Below, in pieces: positions 1,181 through 7,150 of a DNA stretch of 7,947 nucleotides. The translations under genes and the position numbers were made by a program. Position 1 is the stretch's first letter; every line of letters begins with the position of its first letter. The DNA comes from a virus. Its lineage: Duplodnaviria; Heunggongvirae; Uroviricota; Caudoviricetes. The notes below the pieces were generated by a model. That model worked only from the letters and a program-made list of their open reading frames with translations, made no database searches and had not been told where the DNA came from. The stretch spans positions 1 to 7,947 of IMG/VR virus record IMGVR_UViG_2713896907_000004, one strand, 5' to 3'.

Positions 1181-2617
1181 TCAGAATCCTCCTTTCTTCT
1201 TGGACTGCGGTTCCTCGCGTTCACGGCGGCGCATTTCAGCAGACTGTTGGTCTGTGTCATAAATAGCGCCATTTGCCTGTATGCAATACACCGTGCCGGT
1301 ATTGCCATGACGATTGAGGCGAAGGATTAGTTCGGTTTCACCAGGAGGAACGCTGTCATCAAAAGCACCTTCACGATGGATCCCCACCCAATAATCGCAA
1401 TCCTGTTCAATCTGCCCTGTATCTCGTGAGTCACTTGGTAATGGGCGTTTATTGGTTCGGCTTTCCAGTGCGCGGTTAAGCTGTGTCAGAAGCACAACAA
1501 CGCAATCAAGCTCTTTGGCAAGGTTCTTCAGTCCTTTGGTGATCATGCCGTAAGCAAGGTCGTTGCGATCGGCCTTTTCAGCGGTCATTAGTGTCAGGTA
1601 ATCGACCAGAATCATGCCAACACATCCTTTTTCTCGCTTGATTCGACGGCTTTCGCTGACGATTTGAGCCAGAGATAATCCCGGCGTGTCGTCGATGTAA
1701 AGCAGGTCGATTTCACTCAAGCGATTGGCTGTCTCGATCGCCCTGTTGAAGTCACCATCGTAATCACCCTGATAGCCGTCATCAGCGTCATTTGTCGCCG
1801 GAAGGTAAAAAATATTCGGGTTCACACCTGACTTCTGCCCTACCAGTTTTTCCAGTATCTGGTCACCTGGCATTTCAAGGCTGAACATCAGAGCGGGCTT
1901 TTTCTCATGCACTGCGCAGTTGATTGCCATCTGGCTGTATAGCGTCGTTTTCCCCATCTTAGGGCGAGCGCCAATGACAAACAGAGAGCCTTTCACCAGA
2001 CCTTTCGGTGACAGCATCCTGTCCAGCGATGGGATCCCTGTGCTCATTCCTCGTTGTTCGCCTGACGGGTCAAATCGCTTCTCAAGGTCGCTAACCCAGT
2101 CTTCCATGACCTCACCAAATGAGCGAAGGCCGCGACGCGATCCGGTTTTTGCATGGTCTGTCAGTTGCGTGAAAATCGACTGAATAGCTTCGTACTTCTG
2201 CGTTGCAGTCATTCCGTTGCGGGAATAGAGCAATTCCGTCGCTTCAGTCATGCGGTTGATGGCGTAGCGTTCCATTGCGGTTTCGCGAACCTGCATTGCA
2301 TAAGCAACGATGTTTGCTGCGCTTGGCGTGTTCTTTGCGATCTCAGCGATATAAGCAAAACCGCCAACAGACGCCGTTAACGATTTACGCTCCAGTTCAT
2401 CGAAAAGCGTCAGGCCATCTACTGGCTTTTGCTCACGGTGCATTCTGGTTATTTCTTCGAAAATGATTTTGTGTGGCCGGCTGTAAAATGAATCAGGCTT
2501 CAGCATCGCCAGAACCTTCTGGACGCGCTCACTGCTGTCATCATCCAGAAGCAATCCACCAATCACCGCCTGCTCTGCCTCGATGCTATGGGGCGGCGCA
2601 TAAAAATTATCGGTCAT
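1181..2617 (-). CDS. dnaB: DnaB-family replicative DNA helicase (phage-encoded, P22 gene 12-like)
   Basis: Track ORF 1181..2632(-). Start chosen at ATG 2617 ([25 protein letters not shown], preceded by GAGGGTG); the track Met at 2632 is the alternative. Classic DnaB N-terminus and Walker A GARPKMGKTT. Start overlaps the upstream gene's stop (ATGACCGATAA). Confidence 0.9.
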   Translation of the reverse strand: MTDNFYAPPHSIEAEQAVIGGLLLDDDSSERVQKVLAMLKPDSFYSRPHKIIFEEITRMHREQKPVDGLTLFDELERKSLTASVGGFAYIAEIAKNTPSAANIVAYAMQVRETAMERYAINRMTEATELLYSRNGMTATQKYEAIQSIFTQLTDHAKTGSRRGLRSFGEVMEDWVSDLEKRFDPSGEQRGMSTGIPSLDRMLSPKGLVKGSLFVIGARPKMGKTTLYSQMAINCAVHEKKPALMFSLEMPGDQILEKLVGQKSGVNPNIFYLPATNDADDGYQGDYDGDFNRAIETANRLSEIDLLYIDDTPGLSLAQIVSESRRIKREKGCVGMILVDYLTLMTAEKADRNDLAYGMITKGLKNLAKELDCVVVLLTQLNRALESRTNKRPLPSDSRDTGQIEQDCDYWVGIHREGAFDDSVPPGETELILRLNRHGNTGTVYCIQANGAIYDTDQQSAEMRRREREEPQSKKKGGF

Positions 2618-3506
2618 CGTGTTCACCCTCACGAACTTTCAGGTAGGTATTGTCGTTAAGCAGGAAATCAAATCCCTTTTTGTGCCAGACGGTTCCGCGC
2701 TGATGGTTTGGGCGCTCTTCGAACATCCATCGGCAATTTTCGCCTACGTAGCTCAAATAATTTCTCCAGTCCTGCATCGTGAACCCATGCCCGTCAAGCT
2801 GGCGGGTTATCACTCCGGCTTTGCGCCAGAACGTTCGGATCTGGTTTTTACGCTTGTCATTCAGTGCGCGGATTCTTGGCGCTTCAGGAAGGATTTCGTG
2901 GTAAGCATCGACAACATCCTGACAGCTGACGGGAGGTTTTTTCTTGTCAGACTTTTTGTCTGCTGTGGCACTCTCTAATACGTCAGTATTAGAGATAATA
3001 TTATTATATTCTTTATCTGTGGTAATTTGCTGGTAATCTGCTGGTACAGTATTGCTTACAGGCATTGGTATTGCTGGCTTTGAGGTGGTAATTTGCTGGT
3101 AATCTGCTGGTACAAAATTTGACTGATAATCGTCATATTTCTCTACCGAGAAAACTGAGAATTTACCGTGTGAAACCCAGTCAATCATGCCGAGTTTTTT
3201 GAACTTTCTAAGCAGGTACTGAACGCGATCTGGTTTGAGTCCTGTTTCAAACGCCAGAGAGTTTCTACCGCCAAGTAGCTTCCCTCTGCCTACCAGAATT
3301 TCTCCTGCGTCAGTCATTACATACTCAGGCGTATGCTTTGCTTTGAGGATTAAGTGAACCCACAGATGCGCTGCTTCTGCGTCCTTGTAAAACGGCACAT
3401 CCATAATTTTACGGTGCAGCAAGGCATACCCCTTACCGCTGCTTTGATGCGGTTGTTGTAGCCTTCTGGCCTCTCTGGCTTCGGCTAGATTAGATATGTT
3501 ACTCAT
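2607..3506 (-). CDS. Replication initiation protein (lambda O / P22 gp18 analogue)
   Basis: Track ORF 2607..3506(-). AAGGAG 7 nt upstream of the ATG at 3506. N-terminal winged-helix-like region, a central linker carrying the duplicated peptide [10 protein letters not shown], and a C-terminus resembling the conserved phage replication-protein C-terminal domain. Sits immediately upstream of the helicase. Confidence 0.8.
2972..3113. other. Putative origin of replication inside the initiator gene: AT-rich palindrome plus iteron-like direct repeats
   Basis: Two identical 29-bp direct repeats (3019-3047 and 3085-3113, gtggtaatttgctggtaatctgctggtac), each with GCTGGTAAT sub-repeats at about 11-bp spacing. 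Adjacent AT-rich stretch 2972-3016 holds a perfect 10-bp inverted repeat, tctctaatac-gtca-gtattagaga (2972-2995). Layout matches lambda ori inside O. Confidence 0.5.
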
Positions 3507-3654: not shown

Positions 3655-3731
3655 TGTGGATTGATCCAGTAATTACCTCAGAACTCCATCTGGATTTGTT
3701 CAGAACGCTCGGTTGCCGCCGGGCGTTTTTT
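3655..3731 (+). ncRNA. oop: oop-like antisense RNA candidate (about 77 nt, antisense to the cII 3' end)
   Basis: Plus-strand extended -10 TGtCATAAT at 3640-3648 in the cII/initiator intergenic region, with a strong intrinsic terminator about 77 nt downstream inside the cII 3' end. Geometry as for lambda OOP. Start site is inferred, not observed. Confidence 0.4.
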
Positions 3732-3974
3732 ATTGGTTAGTCCATCAAGCGCATACTTAAAAGCCCTGCTAATCGGACTGATGTCTGATGCCATTCCAAA
3801 AGCACACAGAACCGAAGCAATAAATCTCCAGTCCGTTCTGCTTATCTTCGATTCATGACAGCCAATCATCTTTGCCAGACCGCGCTGGGTAAGCGTTGAC
3901 AGGTTGATAAGTAAATCTGTTTCTGCGCGATCAACGTCGCGCTGTGATAGTTTGCTGTAACTTGTTTGTTCCAT
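3678..3974 (-). CDS. cII: CII transcriptional activator (lambda CII family)
   Basis: Track ORF 3678..3974(-), 98 aa. C-terminal LTNKKRPAATERSEQIQMEF matches the lambda CII C-terminus as recalled. HTH-like ESKISRTDWRF in the middle. Sits between cro and the replication genes. Confidence 0.9.
   Translation of the reverse strand: MEQTSYSKLSQRDVDRAETDLLINLSTLTQRGLAKMIGCHESKISRTDWRFIASVLCAFGMASDISPISRAFKYALDGLTNKKRPAATERSEQIQMEF
3704..3731 (+). terminator. Rho-independent terminator on the strand antisense to cII
   Basis: Stem cgctcgg (3706-3712) / ccgggcg (3719-3725) with one G-U pair, 6-nt loop, extendable by two A-T pairs, followed by TTTTTTATT. Confidence 0.6.
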
Positions 3975-4038: not shown

Positions 4039-4073
4039 ACCGCGTTGTCGGCGGTGCAGATTGATAAAGAGCG
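4039..4073 (-). promoter_or_regulatory. nutR: boxA plus P22-type boxB
   Basis: Minus strand just downstream of the cro stop: boxA-like CGCTCTTTA (plus 4065-4073), then boxB hairpin ACCGCCGACAACGCGGU (plus 4039-4055). Matches the P22 nutR boxB as recalled. Confidence 0.6.
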
Positions 4074-4080
4074 ATGTTAC

Positions 4081-4308
4081 TTATGCAGCCAGAAGGTTCT
4101 TTTTGCTTATTTCAAGCATTTCGCTTGCTTGATATTTGCCACCAGAAATCTCTTCGATTTTTGATGCATATTTCGTTTTCCCAAAAAACTCAGTCTTAGG
4201 GAGGAAGCCGTTTTTAAGCCACTTATAGACAGCCCTTTCGCTAACTCCACAAGCCTTCGCAACTTCAGGGATGCCGACACCTTTAATCGGCTCATCAAGA
4301 TTTTGCAT
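4081..4308 (-). CDS. cro: Cro-like HTH regulator (first gene of the PR operon)
   Basis: Track ORF 4081..4341(-). Start chosen at internal ATG 4308 (MQNLDEPIKGVGIPEVAKACGVSERAVYKWLKNGFLP...), which has AAAAAGGG 8 nt upstream. The track ATG at 4341 falls inside the predicted PR -10. HTH motif present; divergent from cI. Confidence 0.7.
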   Translation of the reverse strand: MQNLDEPIKGVGIPEVAKACGVSERAVYKWLKNGFLPKTEFFGKTKYASKIEEISGGKYQASEMLEISKKNLLAA

Positions 4309-4320
4309 AGGAATACCCTT

Positions 4321-4393
4321 TTTCGTACTTTCAGTACGCATTATGATTGAACTGAAAGTTTTTGCAAGTGCTTTAGTATCGTACTCATGGTTC
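4321..4393. promoter_or_regulatory. OR-like operator/promoter region (PR leftward, PRM rightward)
   Basis: Minus-strand PR: -35 TTGCAA (plus 4362-4367), 16-bp spacer, -10 CATAAT (plus 4340-4345). Operator-like sites: cgtACTttcAGTacg palindrome (4324-4338), gaACTgaaAGTt (4349-4360), weaker taTCGTACtc (4377-4386). Possible PRM -10 TAGTAT (4374-4379) ends 7 nt before the cI ATG, which lacks a Shine-Dalgarno. Confidence 0.5.
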
Positions 4394-5094
4394 AGAATGA
4401 AAAAGTGCGCAAAGAATTCGCCCAGCGGCTAGCGCAAGCCTGTAAAGAAGCTGGTCTTGATGAACATGGTAGGGGGATGGCCATAGCCCGTGCCCTTTCT
4501 CTTTCGTCCAAAGGCGTTAGCAAATGGTTTAATGCTGAGTCTTTACCGCGTCAGGAAAAAATGAATGCGCTTGCGAAATTTCTAAACGTTGATGTTGTTT
4601 GGCTTCAGCACGGCACTTCGTTAAATGGAGCGAATGATGAAGATACTCTTTCATTTGTTGGCAAATTAAAAAAAGGGTTAGTGCGCGTGGTTGGTGAGGC
4701 AATTCTTGGTGTTGATGGTGCCATCGAGATGACCGAAGAGCGCGATGGGTGGCTCAAGATTTATAGCGATGATCCAGATGCCTTTGGTCTTCGTGTGAAA
4801 GGAGACAGCATGTGGCCCAGAATAAAATCAGGAGAATATGTACTCATTGAGCCTAACACCAAAGTATTCCCGGGTGATGAGGTGTTTGTCAGAACCGTTG
4901 AAGGACACAACATGATTAAGGTTCTTGGCTATGACAGAGATGGAGAATACCAATTTACAAGCATTAACCAGGACCACAGGCCTATAACGTTGCCTTATCA
5001 TCAAGTAGCAAAGGTGGAGTATGTGGCTGGTATTCTGAAGCAATCTCGTCATCTGGATGACATCGAGGCAAGGGAGTGGCTGAAAAATTCGTGA
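4387..5094 (+). CDS. cI: CI-like prophage repressor (N-terminal HTH, C-terminal S24 LexA-like peptidase)
   Basis: Track ORF 4387..5094(+), 235 aa. HTH near the N-terminus (GMAIARALSLSSKGVSKWFN). C-terminal GDSMWP serine motif and downstream Lys (NMIKVLG) typical of the S24 autocleavage domain. Divergent from cro with the operator region between. Confidence 0.9.
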   Translation: MVQNEKVRKEFAQRLAQACKEAGLDEHGRGMAIARALSLSSKGVSKWFNAESLPRQEKMNALAKFLNVDVVWLQHGTSLNGANDEDTLSFVGKLKKGLVRVVGEAILGVDGAIEMTEERDGWLKIYSDDPDAFGLRVKGDSMWPRIKSGEYVLIEPNTKVFPGDEVFVRTVEGHNMIKVLGYDRDGEYQFTSINQDHRPITLPYHQVAKVEYVAGILKQSRHLDDIEAREWLKNS

Positions 5095-5170
5095 CTTCAT
5101 CGTCACATAGCTGGTAACCAGTGGCCTGAAGAGACGTTTGGGTGATAGGAATGGATGTTAAGGATTAAGA

Positions 5171-6217
5171 ATGTCAGCGATTGATCAACCTGCGCAATAT
5201 GTTATCAAGTCAGAAGACGACTTTGTATCTTTTGTAACAGAAATGCTCGGAAGGAAGGATATCGACTCAAGCGACTTCACATTCCCTAGCGTAGTTTTCA
5301 GTGGATGGCCAAAGATCAATATTAATGTAAAAGGCGATCCAAATAGATATAATTCTTCATTGACTGCGTCAATGCTTTTTGGTATGGCAGAGCTTACGCA
5401 TGAAATACAAAAAGCATTTACGGTAGTCAGTCACAGCACTCATAATCGGCAGAAGCTAAAAGATGCAGAGAAAGGTTTGCTGGATATTGTCTACCGAATA
5501 AGCGAAGGCTCAAGCCAAGCGGATGGTGACTCAGATCCGATTGTAAACGGAGTGGTGACAGTGTTAACTCAAGCGATAGGCAAAATGACAGGAAGGCAAG
5601 CACTATGCGCCGTCGCCGCTATCGTCTTAGCTGCCAGCACGGTAGGCTATAAGTGGATCAATGAGTACTACGAAACACAGCGACATGACCAAGATTCTCA
5701 GGTGCAATTGGTGGAAAAAAGCACCAAAGCGGTAAACGAAGCACAAGACAATGTGCTCAAGTTGTTGATTAGCGGTCAAACAAACATTAGCAGAGAGGTT
5801 CTGGCTCACGGCGAGGATGGTAAAAGCAAGTTGCTTAAAAAGCTTGCTCAAGACTCGTCAGTTGAGAAGGTAACAATTGGTCAGAGAGTGGTAAATAGAG
5901 AACAGTTGAATACCTTAAACCAAAGGCAATCAATTGATCGAAAAAAGGAAACCAGAAGAGATAACTTTTATGTCACGGGCGTTCGTCGCTCGGGAGAAAC
6001 AAATCAGGACATAAATATTGACGTCACAAGGGTTTCAAATGGTGAATCTTTCACCATAAAAACCTCAGCCGACATAACATCTACTGATGAGCTTCTTGAG
6101 TTTTTGAATGCTGTAGCCAAAGAATCAACTGTTGAAATTTCATACCTAGAGGTTGTAGAAAATGGACACATTTCAACAGGACAATTGATAAATATATTCC
6201 CCAGCGAACCAGAGTGA
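5171..6217 (+). CDS. Hypothetical membrane protein (348 aa) in the rexAB-equivalent slot; candidate exclusion/defence moron
   Basis: Track ORF 5171..6217(+). AAGGA 6 nt upstream of the ATG. Same strand as cI, 76 bp downstream, with no terminator between. Visibly AT-richer than neighbours. One central hydrophobic segment (ALCAVAAIVLAASTVGY) and a charged Q/K/E-rich C-terminal half. No family recognised. Terminator follows. Confidence 0.8.
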   Translation: MSAIDQPAQYVIKSEDDFVSFVTEMLGRKDIDSSDFTFPSVVFSGWPKININVKGDPNRYNSSLTASMLFGMAELTHEIQKAFTVVSHSTHNRQKLKDAEKGLLDIVYRISEGSSQADGDSDPIVNGVVTVLTQAIGKMTGRQALCAVAAIVLAASTVGYKWINEYYETQRHDQDSQVQLVEKSTKAVNEAQDNVLKLLISGQTNISREVLAHGEDGKSKLLKKLAQDSSVEKVTIGQRVVNREQLNTLNQRQSIDRKKETRRDNFYVTGVRRSGETNQDINIDVTRVSNGESFTIKTSADITSTDELLEFLNAVAKESTVEISYLEVVENGHISTGQLINIFPSEPE

Positions 6218-6225
6218 TGCACTCC

Positions 6226-6254
6226 AAACCCGGCCTCAGCGCCGGGTTTTCTTT
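6226..6254 (+). terminator. Rho-independent terminator after the 348-aa gene
   Basis: Stem aaacccggc (6226-6234) / gccgggttt (6241-6249) with loop ctcagc, followed by TTTTCTTT (6247-6254). Begins 9 nt after the TGA stop. Confidence 0.7.
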
Positions 6255-6354
6255 GCCTCACGTTCGCCCTCCCATATTTAATAGCCGCAAATGTGGTAAA
6301 CCGCGAACCAACTCACCAGCAATACCCCCTCCAACTACAGACCAATCTGCAGCA

Positions 6355-6382
6355 TTTACAAAAATAAATTTCCTTATATATC
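6355..6382 (+). promoter_or_regulatory. Near-consensus sigma70-like promoter candidate in the AT-rich spacer upstream of OL
   Basis: -35 TTTACA (6355-6360), 16-bp spacer, -10 TATATA (6377-6382), plus strand, pointing toward nutL and N. Confidence 0.35.
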
Positions 6383-6418
6383 AAAATTATATCTCGCTGC
6401 ATTAATAAATCACAAAAA

Positions 6419-6464
6419 TTTCGTACCAATAGTTCTTGATAATATCGAACTATTGGTTCATTAT
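6419..6464 (+). promoter_or_regulatory. OL/PL-like region: operator motifs co-linear with OR plus a PL candidate
   Basis: TTTCGTACcaatAGTtC (6419-6435) and GAACTattgGTT (6447-6458) match the OR motifs TTTCGTACtttcAGTaC and GAACTgaaaGTT in the same order with near-identical spacing. 11-bp perfect inverted repeat accaatagttc / gaactattggt (6425-6435 / 6447-6457). PL candidate: -35 TTGATA (6436-6441), 17-bp spacer, -10 CATTAT (6459-6464). Confidence 0.45.
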
Positions 6465-6510
6465 TGTCACATCAGCAGGACGCTGGAAGCCAAACGGAAC
6501 AGATTGGCAG

Positions 6511-6544
6511 GCTCTTTAACTTCGATGGGGCGCTGACAAAGCGC
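6511..6544 (+). promoter_or_regulatory. nutL: boxA plus P22-type boxB
   Basis: boxA-like GCTCTTTAAC (6511-6520), then boxB hairpin GCGCTGACAAAGCGC (6530-6544), which is the P22 nutL boxB as recalled. Upstream of the N-like gene. Confidence 0.7.
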
Positions 6545-6572
6545 AAACAGATACCAAACGAGATGGGTTTGG

Positions 6573-6655
6573 CGGTGTGTAGCTCAGCAGGTAGAGCGGA
6601 TTCGTTGGCTAAGCCGTGGAATCGCGTCACCAGTTCAAGTATGGTCACACCACCA
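6573..6655 (+). other. tRNA-like element, non-canonical (degenerate tRNA remnant or structured N-leader RNA)
   Basis: Strong D-arm signature TA-GCTC-AGCAGGTA-GAGC. T-arm-like ACCAG-TTCAAGT-ATGGT with a G53/A61 mismatch. Acceptor cggtgtg/cacacca pairs 6 of 7. The anticodon stem gattc/gaatc encloses a 15-nt loop rather than 7. CCA follows at 6653-6655. Confidence 0.3.
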
Positions 6656-6681
6656 AAGCCATTTCACATGGAGAAAAGAAA

Positions 6682-6801
6682 ATGCTGGAAATTATCACCA
6701 ACCCAATTCTCGGTGGGGCAATCATCACTTTCGCAATCGGCATCGGATTCACTATCTGGTCTGAAGTAGATGACTGGATGTGGGAGCGCAAAAACAAATA
6801 A
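6682..6801 (+). CDS. Small hydrophobic peptide (39 aa, single predicted TM helix) in the N leader
   Basis: ATG at 6682 with GGAG 8 nt upstream. Product MLEIITNPILGGAIITFAIGIGFTIWSEVDDWMWERKNK: hydrophobic core then a charged Trp-rich tail. Inside the longer track ORF 6616..6801. Lies between nutL and N. Confidence 0.4.
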   Translation: MLEIITNPILGGAIITFAIGIGFTIWSEVDDWMWERKNK

Positions 6802-6841: not shown

Positions 6842-7150
6842 ATGACGGTTATCGTATACGGAAAATCAACATTTGCAGGAAATGCCAAAACTCGCCGTCA
6901 TGAGCGGCGCAGAAAGCTGGCTATCGAGCGTGATTCCATCTGCAACATCATCGATTCGATCTTCGGCACAGACAGTGAGGAAGCTGTTCAGGAAGAACCG
7001 AGAAAGCGTTTAAGCCTTTCTGAAAAAGCAATATCACTCGGCATCATTAGTAAATCAAATACAGATGCGAATGGCGGAAGCGTTTGCCTGCCCGAAGTTG
7101 CACTGTATGCTGCTGGTTACAGGTCAATGAAATCAATTACGGCGAGATAG
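6842..7150 (+). CDS. N: N-like transcription antiterminator (P22 gene 24 type, arginine-rich motif)
   Basis: Internal start of track ORF 6770..7150 at Met 25 (ATG 6842), with GGAGG 5 nt upstream. N-terminus MTVIVYGKSTFAGNAKTRRHERRRKLAIERD carries the arginine-rich boxB-binding motif of P22 N as recalled. Cognate boxB present in both nutL and nutR. Confidence 0.85.
   Translation: MTVIVYGKSTFAGNAKTRRHERRRKLAIERDSICNIIDSIFGTDSEEAVQEEPRKRLSLSEKAISLGIISKSNTDANGGSVCLPEVALYAAGYRSMKSITAR

Follow-up and report, generated by a model that had tools for sequence, protein, structure and literature searches.

The window, meaning the whole 7,947-bp stretch of DNA that was analyzed, carries the divergent genes cro and cI and, downstream of cI, an additional ORF, an intrinsic terminator, and a second regulatory region leading through nutL into an N gene (Table 1). 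The CI protein matches CI of phage 933W at 234 of 235 residues over its full length, with the sole difference at residue 234, and Cro matches at 75 of 75. Sites OR1 to OR3 and OL1 to OL2 are base-for-base the same as in 933W and phi24B, and pR, pM, and tM are common to the window and the immunity regions of 933W, phi24B, Min27, and Stx2 phage 86. At matching positions, AF125520 is annotated with oR1, oR2, oR3, pR, and pM, and GQ499361 with OL2 and OL1. The window almost certainly carries the immunity switch of a 933W-type lambdoid prophage, with one CI and five symmetric 15-bp operators. Searches of the window with ARAGORN and Rfam gave no tRNA and no known RNA.

The surrounding modules differ from those of 933W. 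Between cI and tM, the window has one 348-aa ORF where 933W has L0084-L0083-stk-L0081; this ORF is absent from 933W, had no match in Pfam, PADLOC, or PDB, and matches PHROG 6191, which is labelled as function unknown. The N and replication modules also differ, with a P22-type N of 102 aa downstream of nutL (Pfam N_peptide, 6.5e-37) and a DnaB-type helicase. The nutL boxB (GCGCTGACAAAGCGC), the nutR boxB (ACCGCCGACAACGCGGT), and the arginine-rich motif of N (GNAKTRRHERRRKLAIERD) are shared with the N/nut antitermination module of phage P22. This N/nut module is a mere neighbor of the operator system; the window's repressor and operators have no relation to c2 of P22 or the c2 operators.

Table 1. 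Features of the immunity region and their positions in the window
Feature	Position	Strand	Evidence or remark
cro, 75 aa	4081..4308	-	100% identity to 933W Cro; HTH matches in Pfam
OR1, CGTACTTTCAGTACG	4324..4338		Identical to "operator oR1" in AF125520; full consensus; overlaps predicted PR start region
PR -10, CATAAT (ATTATG on +)	4340..4345	-	Promoter scan; in OR1/OR2 gap
OR2, TGAACTGAAAGTTTT	4348..4362		Annotated oR2; half-site degenerate (A at position 2')
PR -35, TTGCAA	4362..4367	-	Promoter scan; AF125520 and HM208303 annotations
PRM -10, TAGTAT	4374..4379	+	Abuts OR3; end of pM in AF125520
OR3, CGTACTCATGGTTCA	4380..4394		Annotated oR3; full consensus match
PRM transcription start, annotated	4386	+	HM208303 (phi24B) "pRM transcription start", mapped via identical OR sequence; 1 nt before ATG
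cI repressor gene, 235 aa	4387..5094	+	HTH and S24 peptidase domains (Pfam); 234/235 to 933W CI
348-aa ORF	5171..6217	+	Cargo slot downstream of cI; context, outside operator system
tM intrinsic terminator	6229..6254	+	CCCGGC-loop-GCCGGG, then TTTTCTTT; aligns identically to annotated 933W tM
OL2, CGTACCAATAGTTCT	6422..6436		Identical to 933W; "OL2 repressor binding site" in GQ499361; abuts PL -35
PL -35, TTGATA	6436..6441	+	Promoter scan; between OL motifs
OL1, CGAACTATTGGTTCA	6446..6460		Identical to 933W; OL1 in GQ499361; in PL spacer, overlaps -10
PL -10, CATTAT	6459..6464	+	Promoter scan; CAwTAT conserved in relatives
Predicted PL start (A)	6471	+	Likeness to lambda PL start region
nutL	6510..6544	+	boxA GGCTCTTTAAC 6510-6520; boxB GCGCTGACAAAGCGC 6530-6544

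The original prediction held that the OR and OL regions share a composite pattern and form the two operator clusters of one repressor. The composite, TTTCGTAC-N4-AGT-N-C-N11-GAACT-N4-GTT, has exactly two matches in the window, at 4321–4360 and 6419–6458, both on the + strand, and this 40-nt motif was matched in 0 of 200 dinucleotide shuffles. The identity of all five sites with 933W operators bears out the assignment to a single repressor. The proposed division into two motif classes did not survive, as all five sites are one rotationally symmetric 15-bp operator, of the form nGwACnnnnnGTwCn, differing mainly in T or A at position 3. Its core, GNAC-N5-GTNC, occurs four times in 7,947 bp, each time inside the OR and OL regions, and a weight matrix run over 7,932 positions gave its four highest ranks to OL1, OR1, OL2, and OR3, with OR2 sixth. 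Published analysis of 933W describes five natural 15-bp symmetric sites with AC invariant at positions 4–5, position 6 occupied by T in seven of the 10 half-sites and by C in three, G at position 2 in just one half-site of OR2, and an OR1 with non-consensus bases at 3, 3', and 7' (PMC3317979). The five window sites agree with every one of these statements, and AC/GT at positions 4–5 and 5'–4' is invariant across the three OR and two OL sites. The repeated motifs are thus the already characterized 933W repressor operators, and the finding is real but a rediscovery of published biology: GenBank records and the Koudelka and Friedman papers already cover the operators, pR, pM, and the absence of OL3.

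A motif search among relatives, proposed as a check, recovered the same OR layout in 11 lineages (the window among them), which include Pectobacterium, Cedecea, Phaseolibacter, Xenorhabdus, Serratia, Dryocola, and Salmonella phage SF10. In these, OR1, OR2, and OR3 begin at -63, -39, and -7 from the cI ATG, with OR3 at -7 in all relatives and its dyad center on the A of the ATG. OR2 is the most rigidly conserved site, including its non-contacted center and degenerate half-site, and its sequence is unchanged in 10 of 11 lineages. The PR -10 does lie between the two OR motifs, as had been proposed; ATTATG was the sole promoter-like match there in a promoter scan, falls inside the pR annotated in AF125520 and HM208303, and is kept in relatives. 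The 16-nt spacer that separates it from the PR -35 is filled by OR2, which also contains the annotated PRM -35. TCGTAC recurs at 4379–4384, where OR3 lies over the cI ATG at 4387. An overlap between a third site and the cI start had therefore been correctly anticipated, but the description of that site as weaker was not sustained: OR3 matches 6 of 6 conserved positions. In 933W, OR1 is the natural site of highest affinity (PMC3317979), and repressor affinity for OR2 and OR3 is similar (PMC5977221).

At OL, TTGATA was found by the promoter scan in the inter-operator gap, where a -35 had been suspected, and pairs with CATTAT at a 17-nt spacer, so that the PL -35 and the PR -10 occupy equivalent gaps. 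The TTG where OL2 meets OL1 is present in 11 of 11 lineages and in nearly all of ~85 close relatives. The segment 6466–6481, CACATCAGCAGGACGC, is an exact 16-nt match to the stretch that follows the lambda PL -10; lambda PL RNA starts AUCAGCAGG. The start points of both PL and PR are those that we infer. Two other OL promoters were considered and rejected. A PR-like PL using GATAAT (6438–6443) as its -10 lacks a -35 upstream of OL2 in every lineage, and this hexamer is not retained in diverged relatives. The junction TTG never varies among the lineages, and the start region agrees with that of lambda PL. A leftward promoter, GTGACA-18-GATATT, has a -35 that is not conserved in 933W. Farther downstream, the nutL boxB is also preserved in the nutL region of 933W.

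The original prediction further described OL and OR as direct rather than mirror-image copies, from which OL would be a same-strand duplicate of the OR1-OR2 module, with two motif types, unlike the lambda arrangement. The composite motif is indeed on the same strand in both regions with an identical 28-nt spacing, both have CGTAC-type half-sites on their left, the gap between operators holds the PR -10 in one and the PL -35 in the other, and 39-bp blocks spanning OR1-OR2 and OL2-OL1 share 21 identities in direct against 16 in inverted alignment. These two figures barely differ because the sites are palindromes, all of them copies of one operator that aligns in either orientation. Over the 27 non-consensus positions, there are 10 direct and 5 inverted identities against ~7–8 expected by chance, and OR1 agrees with the reverse complement of OL2 at 10 of 15 positions but with OL2 itself at 9 of 15. 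The TTT flank shared by the two regions is not found in 933W, where ATTCGTAC stands at OL2. Moreover, a third OL site lies 31–33 bp upstream of OL2 in 7 of 8 diverged relatives, giving these relatives OL3-32-OL2-24-OL1, the mirror of OR1-24-OR2-32-OR3. We rejected direct duplication on the orientation-specific identities and this OL3 spacing, and regard it as highly improbable.

The OL3-like sites were seen in Pectobacterium, Cedecea, Xenorhabdus, and SF10 relatives (e.g., TAAACCATAAGTACA), with weight matrix scores of 7.7–11.6 at that position. In the window, the best site 25–40 bp upstream of OL2 scored 0.6 bits by the same approach and ranked 111th. Like the window, the 933W-type immunity region is without OL3, and 933W has been described as having none (PMC5977221, PMC4848623). 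The 933W lineage apparently lost the OL3 that diverged relatives have.

The operators also form perfect inverted repeats, of 9 bp at OR (ACTTTCAGT/ACTGAAAGT) and 11 bp at OL (ACCAATAGTTC/GAACTATTGGT), which could instead, or additionally, have been selected for forming an RNA hairpin or a DNA cruciform. Folding of the OL stretch gave -13.6 kcal/mol (z = -4.1), and adjacent operators in the window are mutually reverse-complementary even in their non-contacted central 5 bp. The OR fold, however, is unremarkable (z = -1.6), and the OL repeat sits between tM and the PL start and would therefore hardly be transcribed. Among 18 distinct OL2/OL1 pairs there was no covariation, the reverse-complement match of the central 5 bp ranging from 0 to 5; changes were uncompensated, and two Xenorhabdus pairs are direct copies (0/5). 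Single OR1 changes in two lineages (L010 and L013) were likewise uncompensated in OR2. With no compensatory change in the OL pairs or the OR variants, we rejected selection for such a structure, which is scarcely credible, and we retain the reading of these repeats as repressor operators.

The cI gene had been proposed to be leaderless, with TAGTAT as a -10 element 7 nt before its ATG and no Shine-Dalgarno sequence. TAGTAT indeed occupies 4374–4379, overlapping the -10 signal of HM208303, with the ATG at 4387, and TAnnAT-N7-ATG is found in 11 of 11 lineages from seven or more genera, with positions 3–4 of the hexamer variable. The 21 nt upstream of the window cI hold no 4-mer of AGGAGGT, not even GG, and such a 4-mer is absent at this position from the other 10 lineages as well, since an OR3 half-site occupies -7 to -1. 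Could PRM start farther upstream, or translation begin at a downstream codon? The base annotated as the start, 1 nt ahead of the ATG, is C, which would be an unusual initiator of transcription. Against such an alternative, no in-frame start lies between the upstream stop (4348–4350) and the ATG, and the next Met is residue 31, within the HTH domain. In each of the 11 lineages, TAnnAT is precisely 7 nt from the ATG and the Shine-Dalgarno 4-mer is missing. The phi24B start annotation and the feature note for CI in KU238067 ("no RBS found") also speak against it, as does the legend of a published figure that cites Koudelka 2004 for the mapped 933W PRM start. A cI with a conventional leader or a later start is thus very unlikely. 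The phi24B annotation, the conserved TAnnAT, and the lack of a Shine-Dalgarno sequence support a cI transcript that is probably leaderless or nearly so, the position of its start coming from the GenBank annotation and the figure legend.

Compared with lambda, the window has the same divergent cI and cro, three OR sites, an O1-O2 spacing of 24 bp, a PL in which OL1 takes up the spacer/-10 and OL2 adjoins the -35, and the same 16-nt PL start region. Lambda cI also has its ATG a few nucleotides after a weak -10 and no Shine-Dalgarno sequence (TAGATT-N6-ATG against TAGTAT-N7-ATG in the window). The systems differ in operator length (15 bp against 17 bp in lambda), in O2-O3 spacing (32 bp against 20–23 bp), and in the lack of OL3 in the window. 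The lambda register, with O1 in the spacer/-10 and O2 abutting the -35, holds at the window PL but fails at PR, which straddles OR2 and has OR1 over its start, whereas lambda has OR1 in the PR spacer. Relative to the cI ATG, OR3, OR2, and OR1 are centered at 0, -32, and -56, compared with -19, -42, and -66 in lambda, and as a result OR3 falls on the start codon and OR2 over the PRM -35. [quoted passage not shown]

The positions of the sites and promoter-like elements, their sequence identity, and their conservation are direct observations on the window and its relatives; CI binding, activation, repression, and the PRM start would carry over from published work, including footprinting and transcription assays, and from annotations, all on identical sequence. 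In the resulting model, CI, with an N-terminal HTH and a LexA-like S24 self-cleaving C-terminal domain, would bind the five operators. With OR1 over the PR start region and OR2 in the PR -35/-10 spacer, CI at either site would turn off PR and thereby cro and the lytic genes. Transcription assays on identical 933W DNA found that OR2 activates and OR3 represses PRM (PMC5977221, PMC4848623). CI on OR2 would then stimulate PRM, and CI on OR3, centered on the cI ATG, would block it in negative autoregulation. Starting at or 1 nt before the AUG, PRM would yield a leaderless cI mRNA lacking a Shine-Dalgarno sequence. OL1, in the PL spacer/-10, and OL2, abutting the -35, would repress PL, whose transcript would pass via nutL into N.

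Since OR2 is centered 32 bp before the ATG and over the PRM -35, lambda-style contact activation cannot simply be assumed. Relative to lambda (~42 bp), its center is nearer to the PRM start by a full helical turn, at ~32 bp upstream. PRM may conceivably be activated by a repressor that straddles the -35, rather than by contact beside the -35 as with lambda CI, a suggestion that we hold tentatively and consider unlikely. Lambda CII at PRE straddles the -35 region. No discussion of such a geometry for PRM was found within the literature open to the search; if true, a straddling repressor would be a different activation geometry within a classic switch.

Within the immunity region, the window differs from 933W by three OR substitutions outside the operators (4316, 4339, and 4346), one substitution in the OL gap (6444), and a 1-nt indel immediately upstream of OL2. 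The four non-operator substitutions could alter promoter strength. The comparative results are small additions to a well-studied system and open no long-standing question. They indicate that at least seven Enterobacterales genera share an invariant OR layout in which the cI ATG is at the center of OR3 and the transcript is probably leaderless. As a prophage with 933W immunity, the element should be repressed by, and immune to, 933W-type Stx phages, and it should also have the "hair-trigger" low-repressor regulation reported for 933W-type phages.

Megablast placed the cI-cro segment at 98-99% identity to 933W, phi24B, Min27, Stx2 phage 86, and ~100 other Stx phages, and CI and Cro were identical to their 933W counterparts at 234 of 235 and 75 of 75 residues, respectively. 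OR differed from that of 933W at three positions (4316, 4339, and 4346), none of them within the operators, and OL at a single base (6444, in the gap between its operators) plus a 1-nt indel upstream. The 933W GenBank record carries annotation for oR1, oR2, oR3, pR, and pM, which was mapped to the window by a constant 580-nt offset. Overall, the window represents the early region of a lambdoid prophage.

Features of the window, in order, followed by OL3-like sites in related loci (coordinates of each locus)
Feature	Position	Strand	Sequence	Source
NinB-like and other small genes	before the helicase			
DnaB-type helicase	1181-2632	-		
O-like initiator with internal repeats	2607-3506	-		
cII	3678-3974	-		
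cro	4081-4308	-		
OR1 (oR1)	4324-4338		CGTACTTTCAGTACG	933W annotation
pR	4340-4367	-		933W annotation
OR2 (oR2)	4348-4362		TGAACTGAAAGTTTT	933W annotation
pM	4352-4379	+		933W annotation
OR3 (oR3)	4380-4394		CGTACTCATGGTTCA	933W annotation
pRM transcription start	4386 (1 nt before ATG)			phi24B record
cI	4387-5094	+		
348-aa ORF	5171-6217	+		
Terminator	6229-6254			
OL/PL region	6422-6471			
OL2 repressor binding site	6422-6436		CGTACCAATAGTTCT	GQ499361 annotation
OL1 repressor binding site	6446-6460		CGAACTATTGGTTCA	GQ499361 annotation
nutL	6510-6544			
39-aa ORF	6682-6801	+		
P22-type N gene	6842-7150			
OL3-like site, L005	3404-3418			
OL3-like site, L008	5990-6004			
OL3-like site, L009	6259-6273			
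OL3-like site, L011	4870-4884			
OL3-like site, L012	6385-6399			
OL3-like site, L013	4805-4819			
OL3-like site, L014	6331-6345			

The original prediction described a shared two-motif architecture at OR and OL, and its sequence statements are all correct, well beyond chance. The composite TTTCGTAC-N4-AGT-N-C-N11-GAACT-N4-GTT had exactly two matches in the window, both on the + strand (4321-4360 and 6419-6458), and none in 200 shuffles. The PR -10 lies between the two OR motifs (TTGCAA-16-CATAAT, - strand, 4367-4340), a possible -35 lies between the two OL motifs (TTGATA-17-CATTAT, + strand, 6436-6464), and a third TCGTAC site was found again at 4379-4384. The interpretation stood only in part, and that part is already known. 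[quoted passage not shown] 2012, PMC3317979). Every one of these statements holds for the five sites in the window. The strict core GNAC-N5-GTNC was matched four times in the window, each time at an OR/OL operator site, and a half-site weight matrix, applied to 7,932 positions, gave the top four ranks to OL1, OR1, OL2, and OR3, in that order, and the sixth to OR2. Rather than two distinct motifs, the sites are therefore copies of one palindromic operator: the first motif comprises OR1 and OL2, the second comprises OR2 and OL1, and OR3 is the third site, which the original prediction called weaker but which is not weak by consensus.

The proposal of a leaderless cI transcript is well supported, as a leaderless or 1-nt-leader mRNA, though it is not new. 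Upstream of the ATG at 4387, the reading frame has no other start codon back to the stop at 4348-4350, and the next Met is residue 31, within the HTH domain. TAGTAT (4374-4379) lies 7 nt ahead of the ATG. Across 11 lineages, the hexamer before OR3 was TAGTAT, TACTAT, TAATAT, TAAAAT, TATCAT, or TATTAT, always at this distance, with T1, A2, A5, and T6 invariant; fixed ends around a variable middle are the signature of a -10 element. Lambda has TAGATT-N6-ATG. The 7 bases between hexamer and ATG are the left half-site of OR3, leaving no room for a Shine-Dalgarno sequence; none was found in any lineage, no such 4-mer lies upstream of 4387 in the window, and the CI feature of KU238067 bears the note "no RBS found." The phi24B annotation and a published figure showing the 933W PRM start complete this support.

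As the original prediction correctly noted, the equivalent inter-operator gap contains a -10 in OR and a -35 in OL, and there is a genuine feature behind this. The layout of PL follows lambda, with OL2 adjoining the -35 and OL1 in the spacer, overlapping the -10. From 6466 to 6481, the 16 nt CACATCAGCAGGACGC match the start region of lambda PL exactly; lambda PL RNA begins AUCAGCAGG, from which we infer a PL start at A6471. The TTG of the PL -35 did not vary in any lineage and was shared by almost all of ~85 close relatives (IMG/VR); CAwTAT follows OL1. PR is unlike that of lambda, with OR2 flanked by its -35 and -10 and OR1 covering the start region downstream of the -10.

The geometry of OR also departs from lambda, with OR3, OR2, and OR1 centered at 0, -32, and -56 from the cI ATG (-19, -42, and -66 in lambda). 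Consequently, it is the start site itself that OR3 blocks, not the PRM spacer as in lambda. OR2 covers the annotated PRM -35 (4352-4357), which in lambda it abuts. Ten of 11 lineages have the identical OR2, down to its non-contacted center and degenerate half-site; centers of OL sites vary freely among relatives. This rigidity fits extra constraints imposed by the PR spacer and PRM -35, which overlap OR2. PRM activation from this position may use a contact different from that in lambda, the sole partly novel reading left.

Elsewhere in the window, GGTAATTTGCTGGTAATCTGCTGGTACA units repeated at 2985-3120, inside the O-like gene, are probably origin iterons. Downstream of cro, a nutR-like element (4040-4072, - strand) has boxA CGCTCTTTATC and boxB ACCGCCGACAACGCGGT, which we take to match P22 nutR and which fits the P22-type N gene. 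The nutL-N interval bears a superficial tRNA likeness at 6570-6660 (+; GTAGCTCAGCAGGTAGAGC ... GTTCAAGT ... CACACCACCA), where neither ARAGORN nor Rfam found a tRNA or known RNA. Its fold is a single extended hairpin (-31 kcal/mol, z = -2.2) with a closing stem of GGTGTG/CACACC, and it most likely corresponds to the lambda N-leader stem, which contains an RNase III site. Between this hairpin and N, the hydrophobic 39-aa ORF, with a GGAG Shine-Dalgarno sequence, matches PHROG 7482 (function unknown) and takes the place where N itself starts in lambda.

The slot between cI and the tM terminator, which in lambda holds rexAB and in 933W stk, is here filled by the 348-aa ORF, which has a hydrophobic segment at its center. 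The ORF had no Pfam, PADLOC, or PDB match, matched only PHROG 6191 (function unknown), and, of 96 related loci, was present only in L078. We consider it a candidate for an exclusion or defence gene expressed in the lysogen. Across ~90 loci sharing the repressor (among them L016-L095), OL2 lies 901 to 3,058 bp from the cI ATG, with >40 different lengths, and the cI-to-OL interval is therefore a hypervariable cargo slot.

Adjacent operators in the window are reverse-complementary even in their central 5 bp (OR1 TTTCA/OR2 TGAAA; OL2 CAATA/OL1 TATTG), forming perfect inverted repeats of 9 bp at OR and 11 bp at OL, and the OL stretch is predicted to fold well (z = -4.1). Among 18 distinct OL pairs, no compensatory changes were found and the central match ranged from 0 to 5, while single OR1 changes occurred without a matching change in OR2. 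A structural reading was therefore rejected, and in our view the repeats are a side effect, in a single lineage, of the sites being palindromes.

The original prediction also held that OL and OR are direct rather than mirror-image copies, which was not borne out. Because the sites are palindromic, orientation is poorly defined. OR1-gap-OR2 matched OL2-gap-OL1 at 21 of 39 positions directly and 16 of 39 with OL inverted; over the 27 positions outside the operator consensus, identities were 10 and 5, about chance level. OR1 matched the reverse complement of OL2 at 10 of 15 positions and OL2 as is at 9 of 15, and the shared TTT flank is missing at OL2 of 933W and variable among close relatives. 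A search with the cI N-terminal domain recovered relatives with 70-80% identical DNA-binding domains in Pectobacterium, Cedecea, Phaseolibacter, two Xenorhabdus species, a Serratia MAG, and Dryocola. Salmonella phages SF10 and SI8 were recovered too. In every relative locus, OR1 begins at -63 from the cI ATG, OR2 at -39, and OR3 at -7, and OL2 and OL1 are 24 bp apart. A third operator-like site, typically TAAACnnnnnGTACG, lies 31-33 bp upstream of OL2 in 7 of 8 diverged loci (Pectobacterium, Cedecea, Xenorhabdus, Serratia, Dryocola, and Salmonella phage SF10). These sites scored 7.7-11.6 bits, ranking 5th-8th of ~8,000 positions, against a background of ~9 sites of at least 8.5 bits outside OR and OL in 62,545 positions. 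The window and 933W have no OL3, the best candidate there scoring 0.6-1.7 bits. On this comparative evidence, the ancestral left operator would be OL3-32-OL2-24-OL1, the mirror image of OR1-24-OR2-32-OR3; lambda likewise has mirror-image operators, with spacings of 24/20 and 23/24. With an OL3-like site kept in diverged relatives, the well-known lack of OL3 in 933W, shared by the window, looks like a lineage-specific loss.
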